The notes: generated by a model not told the origin, from the sequence alone. Positions 5,898 through 63,566 are shown, numbered from the stretch's first letter. The stretch: DNA of 64,000 bases from Mytilus trossulus (GCF_036588685.1 NC_086373.1:36332001-36396000); one strand, 5' to 3'. Numbers and translations: made by a program.

Positions 5898-6758
5898 CTG
5901 AAACCAATTAGCATATAACATTCAGATATATATGAAATATGCAATGATTCAACAATGTCTTTTGATGATATGGTTGTGTGTTGAATCAGGTTAAACTTTA
6001 TCAATGATAAACATTTGTTTCTGACGTAAACAAAACACACAAATAACATATTTCAAACGAGAATTTTTTTTTCAACTTTATACATGCCATTTTATAAGGA
6101 TCAAATACTGTTTAAAACTTCGAAGCAGCAAGTTTTCACTCAATTCTTTGGTGGTTTTGATAGCACAATTCGGTTCTTTCGAATTGGATTTATAGATTAC
6201 TGTTCTGCTGTCATATATATTCTTTTGTAAGTTTGTCATGTGTAGAAGAAACATATACCTGTGATGAAAACCAACGTATTCTCTTTCGATAAAATAAACG
6301 TTAATGACCTTAGTTGTTGCTTTTAAAATACTGCAATCAATAGTAAAAAAACCATTGTATTTTTAAACAGAAATAAATTTATCTACCTGTAAAAATATAT
6401 ATTTACAATTTATACTTTTGCTATTTGTGAGAAAACAAAAAAGATGACCCCAAAGGAGTTATAGAATTTCAAAAGTCTGCCTAATATTAATATTATATTA
6501 AGATATATGAAAAGACAATTATCGTTTTAAGTGATATATTTTTCAAAAGATATATATTTTCTGATTATTGTGTAGTTACGCCTGGTAACCAATAATTCAT
6601 GTACACCAATTTATCTTTACTAATCATTATGTGTCTGGAAACTCGTAATGTAAAATTAAGGTGATTAATTATGAGTTTTTATCCACTTTTATGCTTATGT
6701 TTTATGTACACTGATAATAAGCATTAAAAGATGTTTCTTCTTATCATAAAATATTTAC

Positions 6759-6856
6759 ACCAGGATCAGAAATCTGTGATAACCAAGAAAGGCAGGTCCA
6801 CTGTGAGCAGAAGTTCTGACTTGAGAGTTGTGAAATCGGGCAATCCAACCAAAATA
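6759..6856 (-). CDS. TyrA coding exon 2 (CuA site)
   Basis: ttttcag|TAT...GT|gtaaat, 98 nt, translated by hand as YFGWIARFHNSQVRTSAHSGPAFLGYHRFLIL. Three CuA His. Phases 0/2 fit the flanking exons. Not in the ORF track. Confidence 0.93.
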
Positions 6857-7117
6857 CTGAAAAGCAGACGAGAATTCTGACTGTTAATGAGTCTTTATAT
6901 CTAATTTATTGGCAGTTTGATGTATACTGAGAGCTATATACAGATATGATACAGATAACTATTTTGTGTCTTTGTGTTTTTGTAAGTTGATGTTTTTATT
7001 TTCATTAATCTGATGAACTGATTATCAAAGTCTGTTCTTATTTTTTGCTGTTTTATTTTAGCTTGTTATTTGTGAGTTTTGCTTACTGTCGAAAATCTAA
7101 CGGTGAGTTGTCTCATT

Positions 7118-7272
7118 TGGGGTTCGTGTTACTTATTCCTTAGTTTTCTGTGTTGTGTCATCTGTTCTATTGTTTGTCTGTTTGTCTTTTTCATTTTTAG
7201 CCAGGCGTTGTCAGTTTATTTTTTTTGATTTATGAGTTCAACTGTCCCTTTGGTATCTTTCGTCCATCTTTT
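7118..7272 (+). mobile_element. Penelope-like 3'-end fragment
   Basis: ggggttcgtgtt...ggtatctttcgtcc, same family as 8756-8920. Another copy at 22025-22175. Confidence 0.75.
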
Positions 7273-8755
7273 TTATAAATTAAGTGCTCTCACAGAACTT
7301 TTCTACATTTATCCTCATTAGGAAAAGAAAAAGAACAAATGTGAAACTCAATCATATATACATTCCCAAAGGTGATAAAAAAAAATCATAGCCAAAACAA
7401 TCTGCGGACAGCGTTAATTTGTGCATTTTTCAACCATATCAGTTCGGAAACAAAGATCCCGAAATCTTCCATAATATCAGAGAAACTTCTAATTTACTTA
7501 ACCGCGTATATACAAGACGTATCTACTTTGTGCAGTTCAGTTTAAATTCGAATGGATAAATATCGCAATCAACAGGTTGGCGTGGTAAAATCTTTATGTC
7601 TTATTAGTTTCTAACTAAATGTACAAAATGTACATGCATGTTATAAATCTCTGACTAATGGCATATTATACCACCGGGACTAATAGTGCAACAAATGCAC
7701 GGTATTGGTTTACGGATATATTTTCTCATTACAACGAACATTATTTCACCCTGCACAATATTGACTTTCAAACGCTTGTGTGTTACAGGTTGTGATTAGT
7801 TCAGTTTATGATGAAGTTAATAATAATATAAAAAGGAAATCAAAGATACAAGTTGTGCAGTTGCATTATATTTTACAAGTACCATTTTCAAAGAAATAAG
7901 ATGGCTACGCTCACTCGACCAAAGAATACATTTCCGTCAAACTATTAACAACACAATGAATCGGTGGATATTTGATCAAGTAAGGCTATTATTCCTTAAA
8001 TGAGGTTGCAATTTCATCTTATCCTTGTCTTTTTTCAACCCTTCAATGCCTGTATTTGGCTTAAGACAAAAAGTTCGACAACGAGATTCAGTGCAAATAA
8101 TTTTATTATCCAAATGGGTATCTGGTTAAATTATACTAATACCATTTATGCTATTGACAGTATAATGTATTGGTTGCAAACAGGTTGTACTGGTTATGGC
8201 AATGAATAATCTCTAATGTTAAAATGTACAAATTTTCTTATTCCTCTTTTGACTTACAATTCAAAACAACAGAGTGATATTATAATCATCATTATTTGAT
8301 CCTTTTTCAAATGAATCAGTGTGAAGTCAATAAAGTTTGGTGGAAATGTGTATTTCTATAACCTTTCATGTCCTTAATAAAAATTGATGAACAAACTACA
8401 GCTTAACATTTTAACCTTGTATACATAAGAAGATTACAACACAGGTTGCAATAACAAAAACAACAAAATTGAAATATTTGTTTTTTAAACGTCACGTAGC
8501 GACACATTCTGTGATAACCATATTAAACATGAACTGACATTCGTCTTACTTTAAGAAGTGATGTAGTTTAAATAATTCTAATACAACGGTTCAATCAGTC
8601 TTTGTTTTGTGTTTATTTGTAAGCTCAGTAGTTTAGCATGTTTTACAGTCATAGGATCGATGCCATTACTAATTTCATCCCTCAGATAATCACATGCACA
8701 GAAAAATTATTGATAGGAGCTGGTTAATTTTGATAAGTTTTACCCTTGAATATAT

Positions 8756-9582
8756 AAAAGAGGGACGAAAGACACATATGGAACATTCAAACGCATAAAT
8801 CGAAAACAAACTGACAACGCCATGGCTAAAAATGAAAAAAAAAGAAAAACAGATAAACAGATAAACAAAAGTACACATGACACAACATAGAAAACTAAAG
8901 AATAAGCAACACGAACCCAACCAAAAACTAGGGGTGATCTCAGGTGCTCCGGAAGAGTAAGCATATCCTGCTCCACATGTGGTACCCTTCATGTTGCTTA
9001 TGAGATAACAAATCCGGTAAATAGTCTATTTCGGTAGGTCACATTATTGAAAAGAAGGGGATTGTAGTTACGACGTAAAGAACATATCCGATATCATTTG
9101 TGAAACGGTTTATTCCATAACTGTCAACCAACTCCGTAAAATTTACGAAGGAATGATTTCAACTTCACTATTCGGAACTTTTGGTTTAATAGCTTCATTG
9201 TGAGTAGCAACCCCCTATCAGTAAAATCATGATAGGAAATGCAAGCACGGGAATATCGTATCAATTGGAAGATGTATACCCCGTATGCAGATGCTGCTGA
9301 AATGTTGCTTCTTTAAAATGAAAAGTTCACAATTGGAAAGCTGAAATCATTTCTTTTGTCGTAAAGTTTTGTTTCAACCGACCCTCATTGTCAGTTTCTA
9401 GATGTTAGTCAAGATATGAGGCCGACTTAACTGTATATGTAGTATCCTTTATCTCTAGTTCGATGGGATAAATGCGTTCAACATAGTCACCAAATTTTGA
9501 ATTATTTAGTAAAAGAACATCATCTATATAGCGAAAAGTAGAGTTAAAGGATATTGCTAACTTCTTATCTTTCTTCCTAATT
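8756..9582 (-). mobile_element. Penelope-like retroelement remnant (RT C-terminus and 3' region) in TyrA intron 1
   Basis: FNSTFRYIDDVLLLNNSKFGDYVERIYPIELEIKDTT..SASYLD, then with stops and frameshifts KLYDKRNDFSFPIVNF..AYGVYIFQLIRYSRAC. The 3' part recurs elsewhere in the window. Confidence 0.85.
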
Positions 9583-10138
9583 CTAAATATTTTATAAGCA
9601 TGCAGTGCTATTCTTTTTATACTTTGTAAGAAATTCAAAAGTCGAATATTTTAAAGGACAAGGATGTATTAGAATAAATAAACACAAGTGACGAGTGATA
9701 TGACCAAAAAAAGAAAGACTTTAAAAAGATAGCCTAAGAAGTAAATTATAAAAACATCGAGTTCCGAGGAAAATTCAAAACGGGAAGCCCGTAATCAATT
9801 TGCAAAATCAAAAACTAAAACAAATCATTCGAATAGATAAAAACAGTCATATTTCTGAATAATCATATCTCTTGTCATTTTGCCTCAGGGTATTAAATTT
9901 GTTTTTCTCCAAAATCGTTAATAAACGAAAGGAGAATTTAGGTAAGATATCTTAAGACTCATGCCAGTACCGAAATACAGACTAATGGTCTGATGATACA
10001 GCCGGAGATTGACAGTACAGCGATTTCAAACAAGTGCCATCCAATTAAAAATATTACTTCATCATTATAATATATACGTCTGAAGCGTTTTTCTTGTTTA
10101 ACATTCATTAGAAAGGCTTTTTGAAACCCAAGGGTTAA

Positions 10139-10594
10139 GGATGCTCGCCGGTATAAGATTTAAAAAAAAAAAAAATTTTATTATTACCTTAAGTAGTTGT
10201 TACTAAATCATATGTTACAAAATTATTCCAAAAAAAAGATTTTTGTTGGCCCCAGGTGACTTTTAAAATGTAGATATCATTGAAAAAGCTCCAAATTATC
10301 TCCCTTTGGTACAAACATGTCATTTTTTGGTATTAAAATTGAAATACCTTTTTTAACTCATCGGTGACCTATATTTTTTATTTTTATATTCGAATAAGCT
10401 GTTCATAAACTAAATAAGTGTAAGATTCAAGCAATTTCTGTAATTTAGTTCTTTTTTTTTTCGAAGGCAGATTGTGAGCGTAAATGAGCTGTGACCCCAT
10501 TTTATTTATTTATGTATAAGATAAAGTTAATTTATAGAAAAGTAAAGCGAAATCCTATATTAAATTAAAAACATATTTAGACCCGCGAGCCCCC
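10139..10594. mobile_element. MITE with imperfect TIRs, TTAA/TCAA flanks (Kolobok-like)
   Basis: Left ttaa|ggatgctcgccggtataa versus right reverse complement ttga|gggggctcgcgggtctaa. Confidence 0.6.
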
Positions 10595-11859
10595 TCAAAA
10601 ATATAATTTTCATCAGTATGATTTTTTCAAACGAAATTAGAGGTAAAGGGGGAAAGTTTAGTTCTTAAACAACATGTTTAACCCCGCCGTATTTAGTGAT
10701 GAATATATGGTTTCGCTTACGTTCGTACGAAATTGCACTCTTGCAGGTTTTTACTGCACTGTTTCATGTCTCATCCCTTGTCATAATAAAACAGTGAAAT
10801 GGCTAGGCACTATTAAAAAAAGACTTATAATGCAAGAATACATTGCTATACATTGAACTGTTTCAATAAAGTTACAAATTAGGCTTATTTAAAATATTTC
10901 TTGCTAATATGTAAGTTGAGATTTTTTTTCTAATTATAATGGTTTCCCATCTACACAATTCATTTTTAGTGCTGTTGGTGTCCTTCGAAAGATACCACTT
11001 ATATGTTTGATTTAAGATATCGAACAGTGCATGCGCTTTTGAAACTGACACCCTCTACCCGAACACTTTACTTTGTAAGAATTATTCCACTAACACTGCT
11101 TGTAACTTATTATATTTACTCATTTGGAACTGCAAAAGAAATCGAAACATTACTTTTTTGTAAATTGCTCGATATATCCTCAGGATAATTAGGTCAATAT
11201 CAAAGGTCAGATTTGGTCATGTTTTGATATTTGAAATTCAACTTGTGATCGCTCTTTCTTAGAAACCGTTCAGGGCATCGACAAAATGTGCTTACTAAGC
11301 TGTTAGTTGCAACATGTCGTTATTTCTGTATTTTTGGTTACAAGGGCTCATTTACACTAAATAGAATTTGCCCCCTTCTAAAGTTGAAATTAGCTGTATT
11401 GTAATAAAACCCATTCACCACATCTAATAGAGACTTAGGATCTTTTGATTTTAGTTCCTTGCTTTATGACCTTAAAGTTCAGATGAAGGTCAAATCTTAA
11501 TTTGTCGTCTTAGTTTTGCACTTTGCTATGAATTCACATTTATAAATAAATCTATTAGGTCTTTTGCATTTGGTTATTAGACATATGACCTTAGTGTTAG
11601 CAGGAAGAAGACCTTATGATTCCGGAAGTAATAATTTGCTGTAATGATTTCATGTGGAAGAACTAAAAAAAACATGTATTTTTGGAATCAGTGTAAAGTT
11701 ACTCTTCAGATGGTTCCAGTGGAGAATTTTGTTAACAAGAAGAAGAAGCAAATTATCACTCTTATTTCATGCAAACATACATGAATTTAGGATACATATA
11801 TTTTTTTTCGGCGTAAGGAAATCTATATTTTGATTCCGAAAGTGGTTTATTATATCATC

Positions 11860-12032
11860 TTACCTGTATTTGGCAAAATCTTTTGGAAATTTTAGTACTC
11901 TATGAATGCTCTTGAAATACGTACTTTATTTGGCCTTTTGAATATTTTTTTTTTATTTGAGCGTCAATGGTGAGTCTTTTGTATACGAAACGCACGTTTG
12001 TCGCAATTATAAAATTTCAAATCTGATATCTA
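11860..12032 (+). mobile_element. Degenerate family-B retrozyme fragment (TyrA intron 1, antisense)
   Basis: gagcgtcaatggtgagtcttttgtatacgaaacgcacgtttgtcgc; flanks match the other family-B copies. Confidence 0.65.
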
Positions 12033-14793
12033 TTCAATCTAAATTTTCTTATCTTAAGTGAATTGGGATAAAAAGACTTTCAGTTGTTCTCTGAATAATT
12101 GGTTTCCAACAGTAAATCAGTGCTCGTCTAATTTTTTGAAAAACCTTTACAGACACAATTCAAAACTTAAAATTTATTAACACACCAAGGACGTATAACA
12201 GGAAGTTAACTGCTAGAAAAGTTAAGTATTTAAAAAGTGAAGAATTTTTGTGGGGATGGGTAAATCATACTAAAGACTCACTGATAATTGTTTTAAATTC
12301 TTTAAACGTGATTTCCCAGATGCTGACTGTTTGCCTTATTATATTCCTATCGAACGGAAAACCAATACATTATACGCATTAGTGAGTTAGATATTTAGTA
12401 ATCCCATTTGATATTGAAATAAATGCATATATTTGTAAATTTCTATATGAAATATTATCAATATTTGTACATGTGTACGAACGTAAAAGAAGTTAATTCA
12501 TTCTCGACAATAATATTTCCTTGAACGAATGTTTGACGTATTTAAAACATATTTCTAATTATACAGAGTTTCTTAATTCATTGAGAATATATAAAAAAAA
12601 AAAAGGTTTTTGTTTATTGCAAACAAAACCAAGTGACTCAGACATTTATGAATACATTAATCATAACTGCTTATTTCTTCATTGAAAATGTGAACCGGTA
12701 TTGTCTTTTTGTATTTCTGTCTTTTTGATCTTGCTGTCGTCTGTATGTTGTATTGCTCCTTGATATCATCTTAGTTTTTACAGCAAGAAATTGATATTAA
12801 GTAGGAAAAATTTGATTTGAAAACGGACAACCTTAGAAAGATCCTCCATTTTGCCAAGAAATAAGAAATAGCTGCAATAAATTTGTTTGAAGAGATTTTG
12901 TGGATTCAACTCCACGAGGAACGCTCAAACCAAAAAATAGAAAGTAAAAAAAAACCAAAAAAAACCCACTGTACTTGTGTTAAGGGGGCACTTTTAGAAT
13001 CCTGGAGTTTGAACGGGAAATAGTTGTATGTATCACTCAAAGTTGTATCAAAGGACTCTCAATTTAAATTTGAATTGAAATACATGTGAATTCTCCATTT
13101 GAACTGGCATGTTTAATTATTTCATTAGGCACTTAACATTCATTAGTAAACCGATTTTAAACTAAACGGCTATTTTGATTTGAACATCTCTTAAAAGGCT
13201 GAACAAAAAAATATTAAGCCATGTCAAATCTTTCTCTTAATTTTCATACTAAACATCTTTGGTAAATGCGGTACAGTCATTTCTATTGCAGTCCATTTAT
13301 AACTGTTTTTAAAGAAATCAAAATATTTATATTTTAAACATTATATTTAATGATTAGCTATTAACACATTTTATCATGTTTTTCACAGTAAATGAAAAAA
13401 GTGACAATAAGCTGCACTTCGATTCCAGGCAAAAATACTTAAACGGTTTTTATTTAATTTATCAAATTTAGTTTTCTGCAACACGGCTGTAACCTTTCAT
13501 CAATGAATGTTTTGATCAGATACTCACATGTTCTTGAATGTCAATTTCATACTCGTTATGTTTATTATGACATTACAACATTTATATCTAATTAATAACA
13601 TTTTAGCTTAAACATGAGCTAAAAGCTTCAATAATCACACATATGAAATGCACGCTTTCTTACATAAGTAAAACTCACATATTACACAATAATATACAAA
13701 CATTAAGGCATTAAGACAAACCACCCTCTATTTCCAACATTTGGTTTCATGAAATATTAATTTCTTCTAGTTGGGTGTGGAGTATAAAACAAAATCCGTT
13801 GTCTTGATATTAAGTAGTTTATATCTTTCTTGATAACTTTGCAATACTTATAACCTAGAGAGAATAATAATGATCTATCATATCTACCCCTTAAAGTTAT
13901 AGTTTACTCATATGCATTTAAAAGAAGCATTGTTAAAATTGTCGATTAGACAACTCCTCACTGGAGACAGAATGACATAAAAGTGATCAACTATAGGTTA
14001 CCGTACGGTGTTCAAAAATTAGCATAACATATACTACATTGCACTATAAAAGCTCTCGAAATTTAAAATTGATATGCTCGTGTTTACTTCAATCAACACG
14101 AACTTAAATATATCAAGTTTTCATAATTTAAAATTCTGTTTATAGGTTAGATTACTTAACCATGATAAGTAGAACACTTCAAGATTCAAAAAATCATTAT
14201 TTAATAATTTAATCAAATATCTCAAAACAAGAAGTATATCCGAAAAACGATTCATTATATGATATATTATATTGTTTTCAAATATTTCACATTATAGAAA
14301 ACAATAATGAAAAAAAGAAAAAAAATAAAGTTTCGCATTTGTACCTCAGAAATGACGCAAATTTAAATTTTAGACGAATTGTAAAAGAAACAAAAGGTGT
14401 GGAGTGATTTCATCAATACATCATGCTTATTATCTTGGTGTTTTTAAGTGTGCTTTTACTTATAACGTAGGAGTGTGGACTTCGTTAATATTCTTGTTTA
14501 ATAATCTGTTAACAACAGTTAAAAAAGAAGAAAACACAAAAATACAGAGGAAAATTCTAAACGGAAATTCCATAAGCAGATGCAGAAATAAAAAGCCCAA
14601 ACACATCAAACGAATGGAGAACAACTGTCATATTGTTGACTTTGTGTTATATACAAATTCTTACATGGAGATACTGGGGTTACATATGGTTTTACAGCTA
14701 CCTAAATTACTTGCTTGCTAGTCTCAGAGATCTGCTAACAAATAAACGGTTTTATTTTTAATTTCTTACCCCGTTTTATTTGTAATTTCTTAC

Positions 14794-15192
14794 CCCACTT
14801 CTATAAGCCTGGCTCCATGCATTACGAAGTCGTTGTCTTTCTCCTTTGGTCAACATTCTGATCTCTTTACGATATGTGCGTCCTGCTTGTCGCTTCTTTC
14901 GTTTGCCTGATATTTTAGGACAAAGCAGTTTACCTACGAAGTCTGAAATGTCTGACATTGTTGCGTTGTCATGAGGATGGCCACAGTCTCGTAAATTTGG
15001 TCCACTCATCCACATGTATCTTGTTACACATGTATTACATACAGCTTCACTTGTGGATTTAGTAACATCATTATATTTAGTTTTCATGATTATGCATTCT
15101 TTAAGATGTTGCGGTAGTTCTATTTCTTCTATCAAGCATGTTCCTATACTGATGTAAGACAGTATAAACAAGCATGCGAGGGCACACTGCAT
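14794..15192 (-). CDS. TyrA coding exon 1 (signal peptide, Cys-rich prodomain, furin site KRKKR, start of tyrosinase domain)
   Basis: ORF MQCALACLFILSYISIGTC|LIEE...KRKKR|QAGRTYRKEIRMLT...AYRSG, then donor GGG|gtaaga (phase 0). RKEIRMLT matches the usual start of the tyrosinase domain. Homologous to three other exon 1 copies in the window. Confidence 0.92.
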
Positions 15193-18115: not shown

Positions 18116-18197
18116 ATGTCTGCATTGTTGCGTTGTCATGAGGATGACCACAGTCTCGTAAATTGGGTCCATTCATTCACATGTATCTTGTTACACA
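18116..18197 (-). pseudogene. 82-bp fragment of TyrA exon 1
   Basis: Matches 14948-15030 with 4 substitutions and 1 deletion (~94%). Confidence 0.92.
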
Positions 18198-38519: not shown

Positions 38520-40074
38520 TTATTTGTGACACGTTTTCCATATCCATTCATTTGAATAATCACAAAAAAACTCTATATAAATATTTGACTCTCTGTCTCT
38601 AGGTGTATATGTGCCTTGGAATCGCCAAATTGATAATACAGCATCTCCAAAGTCGTTTCCATACATAAGTGGACTCTGTTTGGTTACTTTGATAGCTCCA
38701 GAACAAGGGACATAAAAGACATGACCCCCTTCTTGTCTGCGGCAGGTCGGTTTACACAATCGTCCGCATGCGTCGGATGCAGTTACTAGGACTTCCGTCG
38801 GTTTATTCACTGTAGGTTTTTCGATAGCAATGTAGCCAATATGGGAAGAAACCGGAAGTCTGTTATCGACAAAAACGTAATCTGTATATATACCAAAGTA
38901 ACTTAACCCAGATGACTTCAATCTGACCTTGAATGCTCCTGATTGGTCTTCAAAACAATCTTGGTATTTCGCCGGATTGCCCGGATGTACGAGTCTTCTC
39001 AAATATTTGTATTTATGTTCATCATACATATCATATCGGTGGTGTCGTCTATTAACGTTTGTCTGTGATGCAAAATGAACTTCCCTTGGACGAAGATGAA
39101 CAACTTTAATTGGTATAAATGCCCAACGTTTTGAATCAGTTGAACAATCTGCAATAAAATTATTTTGGATAGGTTTACCCATACAAGGTTCACGTTCCTG
39201 TGGAACGTACACGTTTGTTATTTGGTCCGCATTTATTGTTATACTAAAACTATTAGCTATTGCCGTAGAATGATAATGAGTGTCTCTTTTCCCGCGTTTT
39301 TTATTTTTGTTGCGTTTATTACTGTATTTTATTTGAACTTTTTTATGTTTTTTGGCATCAACAAAAGGCTGTGTTTGTTTTTTCAAAAATCTGTCGACAG
39401 ATGCGCATTCTGTACTCGACTTCTTTATTTTACATTGCAAATCAGGCGAACCACAATCAGTATGGTCTTTTGAGCAAGTTGGTGAAAGATGGTAGTAGCT
39501 TTGTCTCGCAAGCTGTACACCAGATCCATCACTGTTCTGGGGAACACGTCCAAGAAATTTTATGAAAGGCATATTCTTTATTGTAATGTTAGGATTTTGA
39601 GCTTCCATTCCGGCTTTTGTTGGATAGGTAGTATTGTATTTGTGAGTATACCTCCATACTTCCCATAAATAATCTACATAGACATGGTGAAGCCAGAAAA
39701 TACAATCCCAGGGTGCTGATTCAATCGGTGCCATTGATCCGCCTACGTAATTGTGCACATCGTCATGATAAGATTCGATGGTGTTATAAGGAGACGGTTC
39801 GACTAGACTGTTAACGTCTGGCATATTCATCACATCCCTTGCTTCGGCGAAAGTAAATAATGATCCTGCATTGCCGCCATTCCTTATTACTGGGTTTCCA
39901 CTGTTATCCTTGGCACCACCACAAAGACCTGTTTTAACTACTCCACTAAATTCTCCAAGATATTCATCCGTCCATAGAATAGAATTTTCCGATTTATCCA
40001 TATTGGCATCCAAACCTGAATTCCAATACGGAAGCGTCACCAAAGGATCAAATTGCTGCAAAATTAGTTCCAAA
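38520..40074 (-). CDS. TyrB coding exon 3 (CuB, furin site KKRGKR, C-terminal domain); joined protein 684 aa
   Basis: Acceptor ttttgcag at 40075, then LELILQQFDPLVTLPYW...ESYHDDVHNYVGGSM...WDCIFWLHHVYVD. Confidence 0.95.
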
Positions 40075-40334
40075 CTGCAAAATTTGATCAAAAAGAACTT
40101 TATTGTAGAGAAAAAACATTGTTAAGCTAAATAATTCTAAAATGTATCTTAATACAATTTGTATTCGATTTAAGGTCAGACAAAATCATAAACGAATTAT
40201 TTCATAAAATTTCTAGTTAAACCTTTTAGAAATTGATTTTGATTTTGAAGGATTAATGAAACTTCTTAATTTAATGATATACGTTTTGTATTTCTACTGT
40301 CTTATTCATTTACACCAACATTGTTGTAAGAAAC

Positions 40335-40660
40335 TTGATGGTCTCTTGGACTTTGTAGCGTGTTCGCCCCCTACGCAGGAAGTCAAGGTTGGAGCCCCGT
40401 CTGGGTCAACTCTAAAGTTGTTATTTGCTTACCTAACACGCGGTATTAAGGATTAAGGACACAGACTAGTTAGTTTGAAGTCAAAACTATGTGTCCAGGT
40501 TGGGTAAAATGTCTTTCTTTTAACTGTGACAGTGTGAATTTGAAATTTCGTATCAGAATGTTTGTCTAGTACAAAGAGGCCAAATATTGATATTACATTA
40601 ACAGTTTCTCGTCCTTAATATACATTTAATTTGCCGCTGCATGGACGTTAAACCGACATT
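40335..40660 (+). mobile_element. Degenerate tRNA-derived SINE-like element in TyrB intron 2
   Basis: Decayed A/B-box head (gtagcgtgttcgcc...ggttggagccccg) plus a body resembling bivalve SINEs; recognised from memory only. Confidence 0.4.
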
Positions 40661-41219
40661 TATCACCATCAGCATTGATGCTTTGTCAACGTATGCCCCA
40701 TTTCTTCTTTTATTCGTATTAAACGATAACATATTTTTGAATAGAAAAGGAAAATTGCAACCAAACTATTCGATGAAATTTCTGTGAATTGATCTTAAAT
40801 TAATTAATGGTTTCTAGGTAGTATATTTCATTCTTACCAAACGTAGCCATTGCTAACTACAACTGCATTGTGTTAAGCAATATTGCATTAAGGGTGTTAC
40901 TCCAATATGTTACAGTTGGGTTTTTTTTCTCAAATGAATATAAAGACAGCTAACGTTCTGGAACCTGTTATCTAAGGGTTGTCGTTTTTGAAGTGGTTAT
41001 TCGTTTGTTGTTTTTTTTATATATAGATTAGACCGTTTGTTTTCCTGCTCGAATGGTTTTACACAAGTCTTTTTTGCGGCCCTTTATAACTTGCTGTTTG
41101 GTGTTAGCCAAGCCTTTGTACTTTTACCTAGATTGGCTTAGTTTTACAAATTGTCACTTAGATGGAGAGTTGTCATATTGGCACTCATACCACAACTTCT
41201 TATATAAAATAATATTTAC

Positions 41220-41317
41220 ATCAGTATCAGGAATCTATGGTACCCTAGAAAGGCAGGTCCATGATGAGCGGACGTTCTAACTTGCTCGTTGTGAAATTTA
41301 GCAAGCCATGCATATGA
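41220..41317 (-). CDS. TyrB coding exon 2 (CuA site)
   Basis: ttttcag|TCA...AT|gtaaat, 98 nt, SYAWLAKFHNEQVRTSAHHGPAFLGYHRFLIL. Three CuA His intact. Confidence 0.93.
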
Positions 41318-43091
41318 CTGAAAATTAAAGATAACATATCGATAAAAATAGAAATATATATCGTTATAAATGACTTTTAGGCGATCTGTAAGGCATGCAC
41401 TTTTTTTTGCGCACTACGACATTGCAGATTTAATCATAGATGGCATGTTTGTTTTCGAAGGGAGTAGATTTTTAATTATTGTTTAAATTACAAAAGCTCC
41501 TTGACCATTAAACCTATTTGTATTTTTTCAGGGGAACGTTTATTGTCAAAGACGTTTGGTAAAGAAAGAAAATATAAGGGAGTTATCTCTCTCTTTGGTC
41601 GGTTTAAGGTTGTTGGTTGGTTTTTTCTTCTTCTGTATAACCGAATACAGTGCATCTTTGTTCAATAAATGTTATACATAGTAATCTCTTTATTAACTTT
41701 TATACGACCATGTTTTTACTTTAAGACAAAAGGCGCAATAATCTTGTGCATTTTACAGAATGCGCATCCACTCTCTACCAATGTAGATCTTTGTTTTGTT
41801 TTTCTCAAAAGATGTTTGATTTAGCTGATTAAAGTGTACATACAGTTTGTCCATCTGTTTCAATTGCTTATTGAAACTCTTATTTCTATAACAAAGGATA
41901 CTAAAATTTATATGTTTGTGGTGTTCCCCAATATCTAATTGTAAATAGAAGACCAAGGGCATGTATAGAAAAGACATATATATATATATATGGGTTTCAT
42001 TACCAGCATTTTGTTTTTTCAAGTTTTAGTATGGAAAATGATCGTGGAAATCATAGTGATATACAAGTGATCTTTCGTTCCTGTTCATGTCAGCACTTAA
42101 TCAACATTACGTTCACTCAATTTTTGTCTGACCACCACAATAAAAAGCGTACTGGGCTTGTGTGGAAGAGATTGTGCAGTGTTTGTTCTCCATCGTGGTC
42201 AAAAGTACAGACTTGATTTGTTTGTGTCTGCTAAGAATATAAAGTAAGGAGATGTGGTGTGATTGTCAATTAGAAAACTTTCAAGTAGAATCCAAATAAA
42301 GTGACAGTAAGCAACTGTAGGCAAACATAAATAACATACACTTACCAACGACAGCGTCTATAATGTGATGAATTTATCTATTTTCTTCTAAAGACTTTTG
42401 AACTACCACGTTACAGTTTTTCTGTCGAGTACAACCATGGGTCCATATTGATGTAGTTTTTAAATGAATAGTTTGTGTATGTTAACTTGTATCAATTTAA
42501 TATTGTGTATCATGTTTTGTTGAGAGGGCTTACATAAACCAAGCCTGTTTCTTGTTCCAATTTAATTGATTTCCTTGAATAAAATACTACTAAAGCTATC
42601 GTATCATTATGTTCTTGCTCTATATAAGCATGTTATGTTTTCCACCGGTTACTTAATCTATATTAGTTTGTCCATCTTTTATCTGATTCCTAATTATGTA
42701 ACAAAAATAAAGATTATTTTGGTCTTCCTCCAACTAGCAGTAAAACCCTTGCCAAAGTGGGACGTCCATTTGGCTGTGCGGGATGTACAAATACTAAGCC
42801 ACGTCATGTAAAAATTGGAACGTTAAATTTGATGCCCTGTGTAGATTGAGTACCATGCTCCGTGGAAGTTAAGAACCCTTGCAACTCTTTATACGGGTCC
42901 ATAGTTGGCCTACCCAATATTCTATCAAGGCAATTTTCTAAAATATTTTTTAATCTTTTTTTGGTTTTCATTTTCATTATCACGGCTCTGTGAATCAATC
43001 TACAGTCTTATTTCTTTTAGACGACCAACGTGTTTACGCCTTAGAATTAACAAAAACTTGCAGTTTGTTGTTTAAAAACATGGAAATAAAA

Positions 43092-43285
43092 GTAAGCTCA
43101 TCACAGATACCAGGATTAGATTTTGTATTTACGCGCCAGACGCTTGACTCGTCTACAAAGGCTCATCAGTGATACTCGAATTAAAAAAAGTTAAAAAGGC
43201 CAAATAAAGTACGAAGTTGAAGATCATTGAGGACCAAAATTCCTAAAATTTTTGCCAAATACATTAAGGAAATATATTCCTGGAT
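43092..43285 (-). mobile_element. Degenerate family-B retrozyme fragment (TyrB intron 1, sense)
   Basis: CUGAUGA is intact but GAAA->GAGU and stem III is broken. Confidence 0.7.
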
Positions 43286-43950
43286 TAAATCAAAAATATG
43301 TTAGAAGCAAGCTAATATTGTCATTAGGATACTAATTTATGCAGATTATTTGAAGACAATTTGCAAATTTCGATCCAATCGACATCAACGACAACATGTG
43401 GTGCAGAACAAAATATTGATTTTATAAGAATCTGAGGTTTTCAAATTCCAGTAGAATTTGAAACGAATACAGGAAAATGGGCTATAACTCTTGGACATTT
43501 ATTATCTCTATGTAAAGAATCTTACCCATTTTAAAAAGATAATAAATGCAAACTACCTTAAATCGTTAATATTCTCAATTTTAGTTTAGTTCATATCGTA
43601 TTACTCATTTGAATGTTTAATGATGTTAAGCGTGGTTTTCTTTTTCTGCTGACAGTTACTGCATTTCTGCGCCTTTCCTCAGTCAAGATTCTCTTGCCTT
43701 TGTTTTTTTTATTTTAGTTCATTATATATTTTGGAGTTTAGCGTGACGTTCATTTTCACTGAGCTAATTTACAACTTTATTTATGGGCCAGCTGAAGTCA
43801 CCTCCTGGTGCGGGATTTTCTCGCTGCGTTGAAGACCCATTGATTGCTCTTTGGTCGGGTTGTTGTCTCTTTGACTTATTCCCCATTTTAATTCTCAGTT
43901 TTACTGGTATTAAAATATGATCTTATCATTGTATTGCAATGATATCTTAC

Positions 43951-44352
43951 CCCACTTTTGGTAGCATTGTTCCAGGCTTTCCGTAATCGTAACCTTTCCA
44001 TCTTTGTTAACATTCTTATTTCTTTACGGTATCGAATTTTACTGGCATCTCGCTTTGTACGTGTTGCTGAATTTTCTTTGCAGAGAAGTTTTCCGAAGAA
44101 ATTTGTAATATCTGTCATAGATGTATTACCTTTAACACTGTAACAATTTTTTAAGTTTGGTCCTTTTATCCACATATATCGTGTTAAACAAGTATTGCAA
44201 ACCGATTCACTTGGCGATATTTTCACATTCTGATGCTGTGTTTTCATGACTATACATTCTTTTAAAAACGGAGGAAGTTCTAGTTGTTCTATCAGGCATC
44301 TCCCAAGACTAACAAAGGTGAGTACCAGTACAAAGCACAATATTTTAGGCAT
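43951..44352 (-). CDS. TyrB coding exon 1 (signal peptide, prodomain, furin site RTKR)
   Basis: MPKILCFVLVLTFVSLGRC|LIEQ...TRTKR|DASKIRYRKEIRMLT...TKSG, donor GGG|gtaaga. Confidence 0.92.
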
Positions 44353-51211: not shown

Positions 51212-52763
51212 TTATTGTGAATTGCATTCTTTCCATATCCATTCATCTGAGTAATCGCAGTAAAACTCCATGAAGATGTTTGATTCTCTTTCGACTGGAG
51301 TGAATTTTCCCTTAAATTGCCAGACCGATAATACAGCATCTCCAAAGTCGTTTCCATACATCAATGGGTTATCAGCGGTCACTTTAATAGCTCCAGAACA
51401 AGGAACATAATGAATCTCATCATCTATCCATTTCCGGCATGTTGGTTTACACAATCGTCCGCATGCGTCAGAGGCAGTTATCAATGCTTCTGTTGGTTTA
51501 TGCCCCGTAGGTTTTTCAACAGCGATGTATCCAATATGAGAGGATACAGGAAGTCTGTTGTCAACAAATACATAATCAGTGTATGCACCGTAGTAGTTTA
51601 GTCCTGAAGCCTTCACTCTAACCTTGAATGCACCAGATTCGTCTTCTTGGCAATCATAATATGTAGCTGGGTTGCCCGGATGTACCAAATTTTTCAGATT
51701 TTTATATTTGTGTTCATCATAAATGTCATATCTGTTTCGATGTCCGTTTACTTCAGTCTGTGAATTAAAATGAACCTCTTTTGGGCGTAGATGAACAACC
51801 TTAATTGGTATAAATGCCCATCTTTTCACATTAGCTGACGAGCAACCTGCAATAAAGCTATTCTGTACTGGTTTTCCCATGCATGGTTCCCGTTCTTGAG
51901 GAATGTAGATATTTGCTACATCTGTTGCCTTTACTGTGAAAGTATAGGTATTAGAATTATGATGAACACTAGTATCTCGTCTGCCTCTGTTTCCTCTCAT
52001 TCCGTTATTGGAAGTAATCTGGACATTCCCACCATTGGCTGCTTGAATATAAGGTTGTACTCTATTTCTAAATATTCTGTCAACAGCAGTACATCCAAAC
52101 ACTTGTCTGCCAAAACTTCGACATTGCAAATCAGGTGATCCACAATTAACGTTCTGTTGTGAACAGGTAGGTGAAACCTGGTAATGACACTGTGATGCTA
52201 GCTCACGACTATATCCATCTTGGTTTGTAGGAATACGTCCAAGAAAATTTATAGCTGGCATATTTGTCATTTGAATATTAGCCTGTTGTCCTCCATGGTT
52301 AGGTTTATTAGGGTATGCAATGTTATATCCATGAGAATATCTCCATAACTCCCAAACATAATCAATATAAGCATGGTAAAACCAGAAGACACAATCCCAT
52401 GGTGCTAATTCAAGTCCTAACATTGTTCCGCCTATGTAAGCGTGGACACTGTCATGGAGCGATTCCAAAGTGTCGAAGTTGGAATTTTCAACTAATTCCT
52501 CAATTGTTGGTACATTGATTATATAGGTTAAATTGGTCCATGTGAATAAAGATCCATCATTGCCACCATTTCTGATTATTCTATTCCCTCTCAGATCCCT
52601 AACTCCACCACAAATACCAGAGTCGACGAATCCATTCAGTTCACCAAGGTATTCATCAGTCCAGAGTATAGAATTTTCAGGTCTATCCATATTAGCTTCA
52701 AACGTTGTATCCCAATACGGGAGTGTTATTCCAGGTTCATACTTTTGTAAAACTCGTTCTAGT
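51212..52763 (-). CDS. TyrC coding exon 3 (CuB, furin site RGRR, C-terminal domain); joined protein 682 aa
   Basis: Acceptor tttccag at 52764, then LERVLQKYEPGITLPYWDTTFEAN running into ORF 51212-52690 (ESLHDSVHAYIGGTM...WDCVFWFYHAYID). Confidence 0.95.
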
Positions 52764-53609
52764 CTGGAAAGAAATTTTAAAGAAAAAGAAGATATGATTA
52801 CAATGCCAAGTGTGCAATTAAAACCATGGGAAATTATTAAAAACCAAAATAAATAAATTGTATTTGAACTTAGCTGTTCATACTTATATAAAGTCCTTTA
52901 ACATCATGAAGACTGTTTCTGTTATACAACTAACTTTCTGTATTTAAATGCACTAATTGCGCATTATGACAATCAATATCTCTTGTGTGATAATTTAAGT
53001 AAAAAAAACAATTGAAAACCTTATACAATGATATATTCGTGATTTTAAATTATGTTTTTTTTCTATTATATTCTATAATATGTATTAAGTATATAAGTCT
53101 AAGAAATCCGTACATACATGTAAGACAAATGCCAATTCTGTAACAGAAGGATATCAAATCTAATTCAACAGCCGTCTTAAATGGTAACTGTGCAAATACA
53201 TTTAATCTGATTCTAGAAAAGTTAAGAGACAATTGGCTTTCAATAATCAGCATGAAAAACCTGCACTTTAACATACATCTTTAGATTTGCTAAGTTAAAC
53301 ATAAGTTTCATGTTGTTGGTGGTTTTTTTTTAAAATTATTATCATTAGTTAGAAAAACATAGGGTATGGAGTATCCATCCATGATTGCCAAACATCAGTA
53401 CATACACAGCAAAAATAAACACACAAAGCAAAGGAACGGCGCTTTAAGTAATGACTAGTTGTAATGTTATTATGTCACAGTGCTTGTAAACTTGTGCACG
53501 ATAAATTGAACTACCCTGCTAGGTTCAACATTCGGCTTTTTATTTTTAGCAGAATTCAAAGTTGTGACGCACCGCCATTTAGGAAATAAAGATATATTAT
53601 TATAATTAC

Positions 53610-53707
53610 ATAAGAAGCAAGAATCGGTGATATCCGGGGAAGGCTGGTCCGTTGTGACTGGTAGTTCGGATGTTTTCGTTGTGAAATCTAGCGACCAATC
53701 CAAAATC
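53610..53707 (-). CDS. TyrC coding exon 2 (CuA site)
   Basis: ttttcag|GAT...AT|gtaatt, 98 nt, DFGLVARFHNENIRTTSHNGPAFPGYHRFLLL. Three CuA His intact. Confidence 0.93.
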
Positions 53708-54154
53708 CTGAAAATGACAGGTACATGTATGAACTGAGATGTAGAAAACTGTAGTTTTTATTTAATGTACAAAGTTGACAAATTTATTGCCGTTTAATTG
53801 GTTGGGTTTTTTTTCAATATGAATCGCACTATTAAAACGACCTGTCTTTGTATCTATTAAACACTCATTTTCAACATTCTACATATTACTAGACGATGTA
53901 TCTTGCTCAGTCTATGCTTAATGTAGAAGAAACCCAGGAAAACTACTATGAGTAGTCACAACATGTTAATGCAGAAACATCAGCTAAAATGACGTTGTGA
54001 CACTAGATTATGTTATAGCCGGTTTATACTTTTTTTTAACAAATCAGCCGCAATATGATGCTTGTAGAACTAGTATAGTAATATACACCAATACACGGGA
54101 TATTCTCTATTTAAACAAAAAGGCAGGTTACCATTAACTTATGGGGGTAAATGG

Positions 54155-54368
54155 AAAAGATGAACATTTGGTTCTGGTGGAAAGCTGTCTCACTGGTTAA
54201 TAGAGCGGGGAAATATTAAAAAAAATAACATCTGGTTCTGATGGAAAGTTGTTCATTGGCAAGTAGTATAACAGTGAAATATATTTAAAACAAATCATAT
54301 AGTTATGGTGGTAAGTTGTCTCATTGGCAATTATAACGATGAAATATAAAAAAGATGAACATTTGGTT
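54155..54368. repeat. Degenerate tandem repeat, ~3 x 65 bp, in TyrC intron 1
   Basis: cat.tggttctg.tggaaagttgtctcattggcaa...gaaatat repeated. Confidence 0.7.
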
Positions 54369-54423
54369 GGTTGTATTTTTCTTATTATACAAGATAAGTA
54401 AAAAAAAAATCCAACAAACTTAC

Positions 54424-54822
54424 TCCCGAATCATATGCCCGTCTCCATGCTCTGCGTAATCGCTGTCGTTCCGCACGGGTTAGCATTCTGAGTTCTTTTC
54501 GGAATGGAATATTTCTTGTTTGCCTTTTTGTTCGTTTCCTTGATGTTTCTTCACATAGCAGTTTTCCAAATAAGATACTGATGTCCGAAATAGTAGTATT
54601 ATCATTCGGGTGATCACATTTTTGCAAGTTTGGTCCTGACATCCAAAGATATCTTGAAACACAGGTATTACAAACAGACTCACTGGGAGATTTAGTGACA
54701 TCCTGATACTTAGTTTTCATTCTCAAACAATCTCGCAAAGATGGTGGCAGTTCAATCTCTTCTATGAAGCATCTTCCGACACTGGCATAAGTCAATAACA
54801 GTAAAATACATGTACACAACAT
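54424..54822 (-). CDS. TyrC coding exon 1 (signal peptide, prodomain, furin site RKRTKR)
   Basis: MLCTCILLLLTYASVGRC|FIEE...RKRTKR|QTRNIPFRKELRMLT...YDSG, donor GGA|gtaagt. Confidence 0.92.
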
Positions 54823-58339: not shown

Positions 58340-58790
58340 CGTATTTTACGTATTTTTTTACATCCTTAAAATGTTTGAGCATTTTTTATGAAGACTAATG
58401 TGAAAAATGCCTCGGATGTACCAATCTTATCATTTAAGTGTTATTTTCTTTTCGCTATCATGGGACCGATACAACTGCTAGTAGGATTTAAGCCCCAGAT
58501 TGTATCGTCACTTCAAGTAGGCTGTGGTTCGGTATGGACATGATTTATAGCACACGGGTTTACACATTTACGTTCATGCTTAATCTATAATAATTTACTC
58601 TAAAACTAAGGTTTCAATTTCAACAGCTTAGATATCTGCTATTCATTTTTATAGCCCTTTCGTTTAAACAGCTTATCACGTTTTCAAGTATTTATATATT
58701 CAAGGCTTTTAATGTTTTGTGGTTTGTCACACTCAGCGTTCCTGTTAAGGTGAAAAATCGCTTTATACACGCTCCAAGATTTATATCCAT
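58340..58790 (+). mobile_element. Highly degenerate family-C retrozyme-like unit
   Basis: Two decayed hammerhead-like motifs (~58378, ~58736) ~358 bp apart. The spacer resembles the reverse complement of the family-A spacer (ttcggtatggacatga). Confidence 0.45.
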
Positions 58791-59996: not shown

Positions 59997-60002
59997 TTTA
60001 TT
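59997..60002 (-). terminator. Candidate poly(A) signal of TyrD
   Basis: AATAAA ~65 nt after the stop codon. Confidence 0.4.
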
Positions 60003-60067
60003 CAGGTTCTGGCTATTATTTCAGATCTGTTACAATTATTAAATTGTATAAAACCAACTACAAATCA

Positions 60068-61631
60068 TTAACGTTTGTATGTATCACTTTGTTTCCACAT
60101 CCATTCATTCGAATAATCGCAGAAAAATTCCATAAATATATTTGATTCATTTTCGATCGGTGTGAAATCTTCGTTAAATTCCCAAATCGATAAAACGCCA
60201 TCCCCAAAGTCGTTTCCGTACATCAACGGACTCTGTTGGGTCACTCTAATGGCGCCAGAACATGGAACATAATAGAGTTTACCTTTAACCCATTGACGAC
60301 ATCTTGGTTTACACAATCGTCCGCATGCGTCAGAGGCAGTTATCAAAGCGTCTGTAGGAGTATACGATGTAGGTTTTTCAACAGCGATATACCCGATATG
60401 AGAGGATATTGGAAGTCTGTTGTCAACGAACACATAATCAGTGTATGCACCGAAGTAACTTAATCCAGTAGACTTCAGTCTTACTTTGAATGCACCGGAT
60501 TCATCTTCTTGGCAATTGTAGTATGTTGCTGGATTACCAGGTCGGACAAGCTTTTTTAAATGATTATATTTGTGCTCATCATACATATCATACCTGTTCT
60601 TGTTTCCATTGGTTTCGGACTGTGAAGTAAAGTGGGCCTCTGTTGGACGCAAATGAACAACTTTAATTGGTATAAAGGCCCATCTCTTCACGTCAGCTTT
60701 TGAACAACCTGCTACAAAATTATTCTGAATTGGCTTTCCCATACATGGTTCATGTTCTTGTGGAAAGTAGATGTTTGTTATTTCGGTTGATTGAATTACT
60801 ATAGATACGGTGTTTTTAATAGTAGTAAGATGGATATTAGTGGTGTCTCTTTTTGTCCTCTTTCCTTCATGGTGATCATCTAAATCAAGCTTGACTTTTC
60901 CACCTTGGACGGCTTTCAGATAAGGTGCTACGCTGTGTCTAAATATTCTATCAACAGCAGTACATCTAAAGGACCCATCAATGCGTCGGCATTGCAAATC
61001 AGGTGATCCACAATACAGGTTATGTTGTGAACAAGTAGGTGACATTAAATATTGGGTCAAAGATGCGAGCTCACGACCATATCCGTCCTTGTTGGTCGGA
61101 ATATGTCCAAGAAAATCTACATATGGCATATTTTCTATTGGGACTTCGGCCTCCTGTATTCTTTTGTTAGGTTTAAAAGGATAGTCAATATTGTAATCAT
61201 GGGTATATCTCCATAATTCCCAAGTATAATCTATGTAGGCATGTTGAAACCAGAAAACGCAATCCCATGGTGCTAATTCCAGTAAGGACATTGTACCCCC
61301 TATATAATTGTGAACATTGCCATGAAGCGATTCCATAGTATCGTAACTAGAATCTTCAACTAAATCGTCAATTCTTTGTTTATTCAATACGTATGTTAAA
61401 TTAGTATGTGTAAATAATGCACCACCATTCCCACCATTTCTTATGATTTTATTACCCCTAAGATCCCGAAATCCCCCACAAATACCAGTGTTGACGAATC
61501 CGTTTATTTCCCCAAGGTATTCATTATTCCAGAGTATGGAATTTTCAGGTTTATCCATATTAGCTTCAACAGTGGTGTCCCAATACGGGAGCGATACTTC
61601 TGGATCAAAACTCTGCAAAATTCGTTCTAAT
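60068..61631 (-). CDS. TyrD coding exon 3 (CuB, furin site KRTKR, C-terminal domain); joined protein 686 aa
   Basis: Acceptor tttacag at 61632, then LERILQSFDPEVSLPYW...ESLHGNVHNYIGGTM...WDCVFWFQHAYID. No stops or frameshifts. Confidence 0.95.
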
Positions 61632-62361
61632 CTGTAAAGAAATATTTATAAAATGTAATTCCTTGCAAAATTTCGACATTATTTATATATGTTACAAATC
61701 TAAACATTTTACAAAATATTCTTATCGTAAGTGTGCTATTTGCAAGTCAACTATTGACAAAATAAAATTTTAAGACGCTACCAGTTGATCAAATGTACAG
61801 AAAAAATATTAAATACGATATCGGTAACCAGTTTTGTTTCTTTGTTGACTTTTAAACTTTAGCTAACTTGTTCAATAAGTCTTCAATCTTTCAATTCTTA
61901 ATAAAATATTGCACGCTTCTAAAATACAATGTTCAGAGGTCGTGGAAAAAACAAGAATAAGTCCTGCATGCTAGATTGAAAATTTATGGCACGATGCTTA
62001 AATATTCTTTCTGATTTTTTTTATATTTCTTGTAATAGACATGAGATATACGGATACACGTTTATTTTGTACTTTTGAATACTTATAACCTTCATTTTAC
62101 TTTTTTTATTTACATCGTAAAAAACTTAGCTTTATCATATGACATTTTCCCCAACAGATTAGTTGAAGTTATACGCAGTATCGTGTCTAACAGCCAAAGG
62201 CACAGCATAATAATGAAAGTATGTTTCATCTTGCTTTTTTACAGCATTTGTCCAAAAAAAATCCCGAACACTCTTGCTTGAGGATTGTGAGAGTTTTCAT
62301 CGAGCAAAAACAAGTTAAAAAAACAGATGTTCTTAAAGAATAAGGAAATGTGCATATTTAC

Positions 62362-62459
62362 ATCAGTAGTAAAAATCTGTAATAACCAGGAAAGGCAGGT
62401 CCACTTTGTGCAGCATTTCTGCTGTTGTCGTTGTGGAATCTAACAAGCCATCCAAAATA
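62362..62459 (-). CDS. TyrD coding exon 2 (degenerate CuA site: His->Gln, His->Tyr)
   Basis: ttggcag|TAT...AT|gtaaat, 98 nt, YFGWLVRFHNDNSRNAAQSGPAFPGYYRFLLL. Frame and splice sites are intact but only one of three CuA His remains. Confidence 0.92.
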
Positions 62460-63167
62460 CTGCCAATAAAAAGTATACATTATAAAGAAACCGTTAAAAC
62501 ATTTAAGTTTCACAACAAAGTTAGAACAAATCAATAATTAGATAACAATAGGTCGTCTCTGTTTTCTGATGTTTGGTAATGACTCAATGGATCGATTACT
62601 AAGTAGGATGCGTTGTCTTGAATAAGTAAACTTATTCTTGCCGATTACGATATCTTATCTTTACTGCATAGAAACAATGCTTGCTTTCTCTGATTAAATT
62701 TTATTAAAAGCGATAATGTAAAGGTGCAGTGTACCTTTTTTTAGAAATAGACAACAATCGGACCAAAGAAACAGCCAAAAGTCACAAATGGGGTTTCAAC
62801 ACAGCGAAAACAAACTGACCCGGAATGGATATAACACTAAAATCCAGAATATATAAACGAACTTAAATTGAAATAAAAACATACAAAACCAACAACGACC
62901 ATAGTTTATTTATAGGAAAACCATTAAGATATAGACAATTATTGAATTTTTATTTTACAAAGAAATAAAAAAAAATAATGTTTGATACTTTATTATAAAT
63001 ATATTGTATTTAAAGGTTAAATCTATAAAACGATTGATGATTGGATATATCTAATATCAACCAGAGTTATTTAATTTCAATATGAAAAAAACGAGTCTTT
63101 AGCGAGTTAATCCTTAGCATCATAATCTAATAACGAGAACTTTTAACATGATACATTTTGTACTTAC

Positions 63168-63566
63168 TCCACTTTTGTAGGCTTTTGACCATGCTCTTTG
63201 TAATCGGAGTCTTTCTGCACGTGTTAACATTCTAATTTCTTTACGAAAAAGAACACTCCCTGCTTGACGCTTTGTTCGCTTTCCTTTTATTTCATCATGT
63301 AGAAGTTTTCCAAAATAGTTACTTATGTCCGATACAGTTATATTATCGTTTGGATGGTCACATTTTTGCAAGTTTGGTCCTTCCTTCCATAAAAATCTTG
63401 TTATACAATTATTACAGACGGACTCACTGGGCGATTTAGTAACGTCTTGGTATTTACTCTTCATCATCAAACATTCCTTTAAAGATGGCGGCAGTTGTAT
63501 TTCTTCAATTAAACATCTTCCTATACTGACCAAAGACAGCAGAAGCCCAATACGCACACACAGCAT
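63168..63566 (-). CDS. TyrD coding exon 1 (signal peptide, prodomain, furin site KRTKR)
   Basis: True start is the second Met of ORF 63120-63596 (tttttcag|gttttaccATG). MLCVRIGLLLSLVSIGRC|LIEE...KRTKR|QAG...YKSG, donor GGA|gtaagt. Confidence 0.92.

Follow-up and report, generated by a model that had tools for sequence, protein, structure and literature searches.

Type-3 copper proteins are commonly shielded by additional domains at the N- or C-terminus (PMC4700666, PMC3658974; here and below, statements on published work refer to the sections of each paper covered here). The plant group 2 polyphenol oxidase (PPO) aurone synthase, cgAUS1, is latent and keeps its C-terminal domain (CTD) attached by a disulfide after proteolysis, as established by reducing and non-reducing gels and mass spectrometry (PMC4540782). 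In arthropod prophenoloxidase and haemocyanin, a placeholder Phe on the N-terminal helical domain lies over the copper site (PMC4700666), and the α-subclass of type-3 copper proteins is defined by an N-terminal signal peptide without a transmembrane anchor (PMC3658974). The enzymes that form and oxidize 3,4-dihydroxyphenylalanine (DOPA) in mussel byssus are poorly understood: a catechol oxidase described in 1985 has no assignable sequence, and a bacterially expressed homologue showed no catalytic activity (PMC11667028). In this study, we analysed a stretch of 64,000 nucleotides from Mytilus trossulus (NC_086373.1:36332001-36396000), referred to as the window, whose minus strand carries four tandem three-exon tyrosinase genes, TyrA, TyrB, TyrC, and TyrD. 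Our results indicate that in TyrA-C the prodomain and the CTD are quite probably joined by some covalent link, and that TyrD has lost two of the Cys residues concerned together with two copper ligands.

The spliced models encode products of 684 (TyrA), 684 (TyrB), 682 (TyrC), and 686 (TyrD) amino acids, each with a single stop and with GT-AG boundaries at every intron. The exon joins are independently supported, since the models match the annotated M. trossulus proteins P0016 (TyrA) and P0026 (TyrB), both at 100% identity, and the two halves of P0045 (TyrC, 100%; TyrD, 99.9%, P0045 residues 1-686). Each protein consists of a hydrophobic leader ending in G-x-C, an 82-residue prodomain, an RxK/RR motif, a tyrosinase core of 325-329 residues, a second such motif, and a CTD of 254-259 residues. 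The leaders of TyrA-D were read as putative secretion signals by inspection, the cleavage point being placed by the small residue at the matching column of the homologues, and the orthologues are given with a signal peptide in table 1 of PMC11667028. PF00264 scored above its cut-off in TyrA exon 3, and TyrA, TyrB, and TyrC retain six copper His (three CuA and three CuB) and match bacterial tyrosinases in Foldseek (E 1e-13), as type-3 copper proteins do. Prodomain and CTD are widespread in molluscs, and no Pfam family matched the prodomain and no Pfam or NCBIfam family the CTD. TyrA, TyrB, and TyrD are orthologues of M. edulis Medu-TYR1, Medu-TYR2, and Medu-TYR3 (sequences from the PMC11667028 supplement), and Medu-TYR4 matches TyrE (P0008), which lies outside the window and whose accession continues those of TyrA-D. 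TyrA is also orthologous to M. coruscus byssal tyrosinase-like protein 2 (ANN45959.1). Among the tyrosinase transcripts, that of Medu-TYR1 is the most abundant (fragments per kilobase per million, FPKM, 510), the peptides found in induced byssal threads number 30, 10, and 1 for Medu-TYR1, Medu-TYR2, and Medu-TYR3, and the M. edulis orthologue of TyrD is transcribed in the foot (PMC11667028).

The sequence-only reading of this locus had proposed that a late prodomain Cys pairs with the Cys near the C-terminus, and the counts from which it started were borne out. In TyrA-C, five Cys precede the first basic site (33, 52, 55, 70, and 91 in TyrA numbering) and nine follow the second (460, 473, 537, 600, 604, 608, 621, 668, and 679), whereas TyrD has four and eight. 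The two missing residues are those it had named, replaced in TyrD by His90 (CAT) and Ser681 (AGT) in the Cys91 and terminal Cys columns, respectively. The double loss is present in all five sequences of the TyrD clade (His or Asn at 91; Ser, Arg, or Thr at 679), and both Cys are kept in the other 15 of 15 sequences of the wider clade. Its view that TyrD looks catalytically dead also agrees with the sequences: in all five D sequences the CuA site is incomplete, with Gln in place of His151 and Tyr in place of His160. The 4, 15, and 10 changes at otherwise invariant positions on the A, B, and C lineages, respectively, spare every invariant Cys.

Covariation was scored on the 150 best hits of a profile search, of which 149 were aligned; 81 rows contain a prodomain, 58 with and 23 without a scorable tail. 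Among the 58, both Cys91 and the terminal Cys were present in 10, neither in 40, the terminal Cys alone in 6, and another late prodomain Cys in 2 (P0139 and P0222, at a position different from that of Cys91 and with no terminal Cys). The predicted coupling of the two columns therefore held in one direction, since Cys91 never occurred without the terminal Cys (10/10, and 15/15 in the clade), but not in the other (6/58). Judged by this distribution, the terminal Cys is older than Cys91. Parity was compared in 55 representatives sharing less than 55% identity, taken from the 72 of 149 rows that contain all three regions. Prodomain and CTD were odd-odd in 12, odd-even in 4, even-odd in 10, and even-even in 29 (odds ratio 8.7, p 0.002), and an odd prodomain was unrelated to an odd core (p 1.0). 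Independent pairs drawn on a tree changed in the same direction in 6.5 and in opposite directions in 0.1 of 12 (median p 0.03). Single cases follow the same pattern: the byssal Medu-TYR10 and Medu-TYR11 have an extra Cys in prodomain helix 1 together with the same terminal Cys as TyrA-C, and Medu-TYR12 has neither (PMC11667028 supplement); oyster P0267 has three prodomain Cys, the extra one near the mature N-terminus, and seven CTD Cys including a terminal one. P0267 and P0236 were read by eye and excluded from the parity counts. From parity and cases together, we infer that a conserved interface between prodomain and CTD may have acquired staples at several different places. That the bond in TyrA-C is exactly Cys91-Cys679 we consider somewhat more probable than not.

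Structure prediction, used here as AlphaFold confidence scores and secondary structure for mature TyrA (665 residues), points to such an interface. The model is a single compact assembly (predicted local distance difference test, pLDDT, 91; predicted template modelling score, pTM, 0.92) with pLDDT below 50 only at mature residues 402-417 and 663-665, and the terminal Cys (mature 660) is outside these segments. When prodomain and core were predicted without the CTD (pTM 0.90), the prodomain blocks lost 12.4 points on average while the core blocks moved by +0.1 (standard deviation 1.8). The drop extended over the whole prodomain, from 70 to 58 in the Cys91 block and most strongly (-19 and -17) around Cys70, and two strands disappeared, one at mature 2-4 and the other, just before site 2, at 392-397. 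Because removal of the CTD lowers confidence in the prodomain and leaves the core unchanged, prodomain and CTD probably touch each other. In these models the prodomain seems to dock on the core and to lean on the CTD, and the core strand before site 2 appears to pair with the CTD across that site. A prediction of the CTD and prodomain as a complex, run without alignments and with the partner fold uncertain, scored 0.00 and weighs neither way. Sequence searches returned no solved relative of prodomain or CTD, although such lists cannot establish a new fold, and structural leads for the CTD were Ig-like only and weak (scores up to 0.81), the best being generic beta-sandwiches with Z of at most 5.8. 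The best-conserved non-Cys stretch of the CTD is the motif G-L-N/S-Y-x-G-x-Y (TyrA 553-560), with Gly553, Tyr556, and Gly558 present in 105, 103, and 104 of 108 representatives; it is located where the alignments to latent enzymes described below end.

Several observations, given here and in the next three paragraphs, count against an exclusive Cys91-Cys679 clamp that confers latency. The alignments used with and without the CTD are equal in 75-97% of prodomain cells, which may inflate the fall in pLDDT. The parity p value ranged from 0.0009 to 0.13 over 15 boundary settings, although the direction held, and without the clade of the window the independent pairs were reduced to 4.1 versus 0.4 (median p 0.22). 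Mutual information over the 149 rows recovered Cys537-Cys600, Cys608-Cys621, and the column pairs 106-179 and 301-360, with the interdomain pairs at noise level. In addition, the Cys total is odd in 21 of the 55 representatives; unpaired Cys are thus common, and parity is a weak guide. The cores of TyrA, TyrB, and TyrD have six Cys; TyrC has a seventh, Cys358, which the sequence-only reading had overlooked and which makes its total odd. TyrA of M. coruscus and M. californianus (P0001 and P0020) has an additional, unpaired CTD Cys475. The six rows with a terminal Cys and no Cys91 comprise the TyrE clade (4 rows), P0065, and P0091, and in P0091 only the terminal Cys is left over, with no intrachain partner by count. 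It is conceivable on these grounds that Cys91 and the terminal Cys bond between molecules, in a homodimer, a head-to-tail oligomer, or with a byssal matrix protein, and that TyrD lost both on leaving the assembly. The terminal Cys on its short free tail would suit such a bond, and intermolecular disulfides have been reported for dandelion PPO-6 and PPO-7 (PMC4540782). However, prodomain and CTD parity track each other, and in the monomer model the position of the prodomain already depends on the CTD; we consider this arrangement unlikely.

The losses in TyrD can be counted only once. TyrD nests as the sister of TyrC in a quick tree, so both losses count as a single event, placed on a stem with 9% of the clade tree length, and further homologue searches yielded no second lineage in which both Cys columns could be scored. 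Terminal Cys loss occurred separately in P0007, a one-member cluster whose sequence lacks the N-terminus. Since 17 of 260 otherwise invariant positions changed on the D lineage, the 2 changes among 18 invariant Cys represent no clear excess, and both could have arisen by independent drift in a relaxed pseudoenzyme. Yet the remaining 16 invariant Cys were kept, the other three lineages lost none, and TyrD is not decaying: its identity to the M. californianus orthologue is 91.5-94.2% by region, similar to that of TyrA. On this comparison TyrD is under normal constraint. Drift appears a very improbable cause of the paired loss. TyrD is a conserved, expressed, and probably copper-deficient paralogue and thereby a candidate byssal pseudoenzyme. 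It also has Phe for Tyr59, Asn for Thr54, and Gly for Asp270, the last adjoining a CuB His. Tyr59, a position that is aromatic in 47 of 63 representatives, and Tyr556 of the CTD motif are candidates for the residue closest to the copper site. Some TyrD orthologues have an eroded site 1, with the P4 Arg gone in P0040 and RTQR in Medu-TYR3.

Whether TyrD is free of the clamp, as the sequence-only reading held, became doubtful with a second pair of Cys. In full-length rows, Cys473 was accompanied in 18 of 18 cases by a Cys 10-17 residues past Cys55, corresponding to Cys70, while 53 rows had neither and one had the prodomain Cys only. TyrD retains both columns, so Cys70-Cys473 may be an older prodomain-CTD bond that TyrD keeps. 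Neither Cys52 nor Cys460, to which a simple scheme would pair Cys70 and Cys473, is a constant partner, since Cys52 is missing in P0107, P0108, P0131, and P0236 and Cys460 in TyrE and P0107. These patterns, together with the largest losses of pLDDT around Cys70, are consistent with several differently wired disulfides, namely an old Cys70-Cys473, Cys52 with Cys460 or Cys679, and Cys91 with the remainder. TyrD would then have lost one staple and kept one or two, and would still be clamped. Such a wiring shares the interface with the Cys91-Cys679 reading and leaves clamp loss and catalytic death unconnected. It is weakened by the fact that all 18 rows belong to one clade and represent one gain, that in P0108 and P0131 three Cys (70, 460, and 473) are left over, one of which stays unpaired under any scheme, and that Cys460 and Cys473 are near each other in the sequence and frequently co-occur. 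On balance we give it nearly, though not quite, an even chance, and a TyrD with no prodomain-CTD link at all seems somewhat doubtful.

In TyrA-D, each protein contains two furin-type RxK/RR sites, located in the linkers between domains. In the TyrA model, site 2 lies within the low-confidence segment 402-417 and site 1 in a block with pLDDT of 70-80. Site 1 is present in 44 and site 2 in 27 of the 55 representatives, against a shuffled expectation of about 4. Because the motifs are so far above this expectation, processing is likely. The sequence-only reading had added that cleavage leaves a two-chain clamp around a released core and that the clamp serves latency, and both additions lost ground. 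Without the CTD the prodomain still docks on the core, which may for this reason not be freely released, and the core strand before site 2 is no longer paired in the model without the CTD. Loss of the staple and loss of catalytic residues coincide in a single paralogue, TyrD, which makes the latency argument drawn from it weak. Furthermore, 38 of 51 representatives with six copper His have no extra prodomain Cys; a covalent staple is thus optional in catalytically complete members. Prodomain and CTD might instead serve in folding, copper loading, or targeting and remain part of the active enzyme, with a disulfide that is structural and unrelated to latency. This would fit the frequent lack of the extra Cys, the absence of site 2 in 28 of 55 representatives, the apparent pairing of a core strand with the CTD across site 2, and the retention in TyrD of both domains, under normal constraint, and of both basic sites. 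Conversely, site 1 is far more frequent than expected by chance, prodomain helix 2 superposes, if weakly, on the N-terminal domain of arthropod prophenoloxidases, and the CTD reaches, if weakly, the C-terminal domains of latent enzymes. We regard purely structural modules as a minority possibility.

The scheme that we favour is a lidded proenzyme. A small helical prodomain and a beta-sandwich CTD, as predicted, would pack on each other and on the copper core, and the Cys91-terminal Cys bond would be an optional staple across their interface in TyrA-C. Furin-type proteases of the secretory pathway would cut both linkers to give chains of about 9, 37, and 29 kDa, of which the 9 and 29 kDa chains, joined by one or more disulfides, would continue to cover the core as a lid, to be loosened at secretion by dilution, pH, or thiol conditions. 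The lid itself would be a non-covalent feature of the whole family, with staples at differing positions by lineage, and TyrD would have lost this staple while perhaps keeping another, Cys70-Cys473. As a whole, a proenzyme with a lid, processed by furin-type proteases and with one or more disulfides joining prodomain and CTD, seems to us slightly more probable than its negation, and the same slight preference applies to the proposal that the lid confers latency. A wider and more speculative extension, which we consider rather unlikely as it stands, is that a large family of molluscan secreted tyrosinases are furin-processed three-chain zymogens, in which a helical prodomain and an uncatalogued beta-sandwich CTD jointly lid the dicopper site with lineage-specific staples. 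Two cuts would prime the zymogen, a pH or thiol change at secretion would free the 37 kDa core, and TyrD would be a non-catalytic subunit or decoy.

These proposals address the timing of DOPA formation and oxidation in mussel byssus. Should the most abundant tyrosinase of the byssus prove to be a cleavable proenzyme with a lid, this would provide concrete band sizes to seek, a possible reason why full-length or bacterial constructs are inactive, and a way to obtain active enzyme for work on adhesive proteins. If the three-chain zymogen exists, it would explain how mussels avoid premature tanning while storing an oxidase beside DOPA proteins. Older work reportedly describes a latent byssal catechol oxidase and a 38 kDa form; our literature search did not confirm this, and it is not used here. 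The same search, in which older byssal enzymology was thinly covered, found no two-site, two-piece lid in molluscan tyrosinases, no cleavage or latency of the present proteins, which is a further point against the proenzyme scheme, and no monophenolase or diphenolase assay of TyrA-C. A word search of the main text of PMC11667028 gave 0 occurrences each of 'disulfide', 'cleav', 'latent', and 'AlphaFold'. In its sections covered here, the basic cleavage sites, the Cys pairing, and the missing His of the TyrD orthologue are not discussed, and the corresponding passages of its supplement hold sequences and lists without peptide positions.

The features of the locus are collected in Table 1. In the public M. 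trossulus annotation TyrD and TyrC are fused into P0045, a protein of 1370 amino acids; in the window a stop closes TyrD, and the two are separate proteins in other Mytilus species. Annotated TyrA (P0016) and an M. edulis transcript have 18 additional N-terminal residues from an upstream start, and a splice acceptor is located immediately 5' of the TyrA Met used here (window 15192 and upstream). Elsewhere, a segment of TyrA exon 1 recurs as a stray copy of 83 bases, 94% identical, ~3 kb upstream of TyrA, and two copies of at least 300 bases, 100% identical and 1044 apart, reflect a recent duplication or an assembly artefact. Several dispersed repeat families of 48-190 bases occur throughout the window in introns and intergenic DNA on both strands.

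Table 1. Positions of the tyrosinase genes, key residues, putative processing sites, and other features in the window.
Feature	Position	Strand	Remarks
TyrA	4340..15192	minus	exons 15192-14794, 6856-6759, 5897-4340; six Cu His
TyrA Cys91	14920-14922	minus	exon 1
TyrA Cys679 (terminal)	4358-4360	minus	exon 3
TyrA furin-type site RKKR	14890-14901	minus	
TyrA furin-type site RRKR	5117-5128	minus	
TyrB	38520..44352	minus	exons 44352-43951, 41317-41220, 40074-38520
TyrB Cys91	44080-44082	minus	
TyrB Cys682 (terminal)	38529-38531	minus	
TyrC	51212..54822	minus	exons 54822-54424, 53707-53610, 52763-51212
TyrC Cys90	54553-54555	minus	
TyrC Cys679 (terminal)	51224-51226	minus	
TyrD coding exon 1	63168..63566	minus	signal peptide, prodomain (4 Cys), first RTKR, core start
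TyrD exon 2	62362..62459	minus	CuA region
TyrD exon 3	60068..61631	minus	CuB half of core, second RTKR, CTD (8 Cys), stop; PF00264 E 1.6e-18
TyrD furin-type site 1, RTKR	63267..63278	minus	putative cleavage
TyrD furin-type site 2, RTKR	60848..60859	minus	putative cleavage
TyrD His90 (CAT)	63297..63299	minus	Cys91 column
TyrD Ser681 (AGT)	60086..60088	minus	terminal Cys column
TyrD Cys69	63360..63362	minus	Cys70 column, kept; candidate partner of Cys473 column by co-occurrence
TyrD Cys475	60704..60706	minus	Cys473 column, kept
TyrD His151 to Gln	62406-62408	minus	His142 kept
TyrD His160 to Tyr	62379-62381	minus	
P0045 (annotated TyrD+TyrC fusion)	51212-63566		
Stray copy of TyrA exon 1 part	18116-18197		
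Duplicated segment, copy 1	31063-31362		
Duplicated segment, copy 2	32107-32406		

The closest known set comprises Medu-TYR1, 2, 3, and 4 (PMC11667028), ANN45959.1, and Perna viridis tyrosinase 5 (U5Y6Q1). The genes are thus known. The two-site, two-piece lid proposed for them is plausible and testable, and no description of it came up in our literature search. The core has the same fold as the fungal and bacterial pro-tyrosinases and the molluscan haemocyanin units with a C-terminal shielding domain represented by 5m6b, 3w6q, 5zrd, 8b74, and 4yd9 (VIA Z 16-21, root-mean-square deviation, rmsd, 2.8-3.4 Å, 233-260 aligned residues). The alignments to these latent enzymes extend into CTD residues 533-583 and end at the core when the CTD is removed, although few CTD residues align. 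On the N-terminal side, alignments to 3wky, 8jib, and 1hc1 begin within prodomain helix 2 (model residues 34-38), opposite residues 73, 84, and 75 of the respective chains. Residues 72 of 3wky and 75 of 1hc1 are presumably the placeholders, although our literature search did not confirm this. The match is weak (Z 7-8, rmsd 3.3-4.7 Å) and concerns end points only, so that homology of the prodomain is unsupported, and these three proteins differ from TyrA-D in being of the β-subclass, which has no signal peptide. The structural alignments may thus give weak hints of a joint lid of prodomain and CTD over the copper site. Like cgAUS1, TyrA-C would keep a shielding domain disulfide-linked after proteolysis (PMC4540782). 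The even cores of TyrA, TyrB, and TyrD, and a core parity untied to that of the prodomain, suggest that a CTD-core disulfide of the cgAUS1 type may be absent from these three. Thus, whereas the bond of cgAUS1 joins the CTD to the core and its cleavage is unspecific, the bond of TyrA-C would join the CTD to the prodomain, leaving the core without a covalent tether, and the cleavage would be of the furin type.

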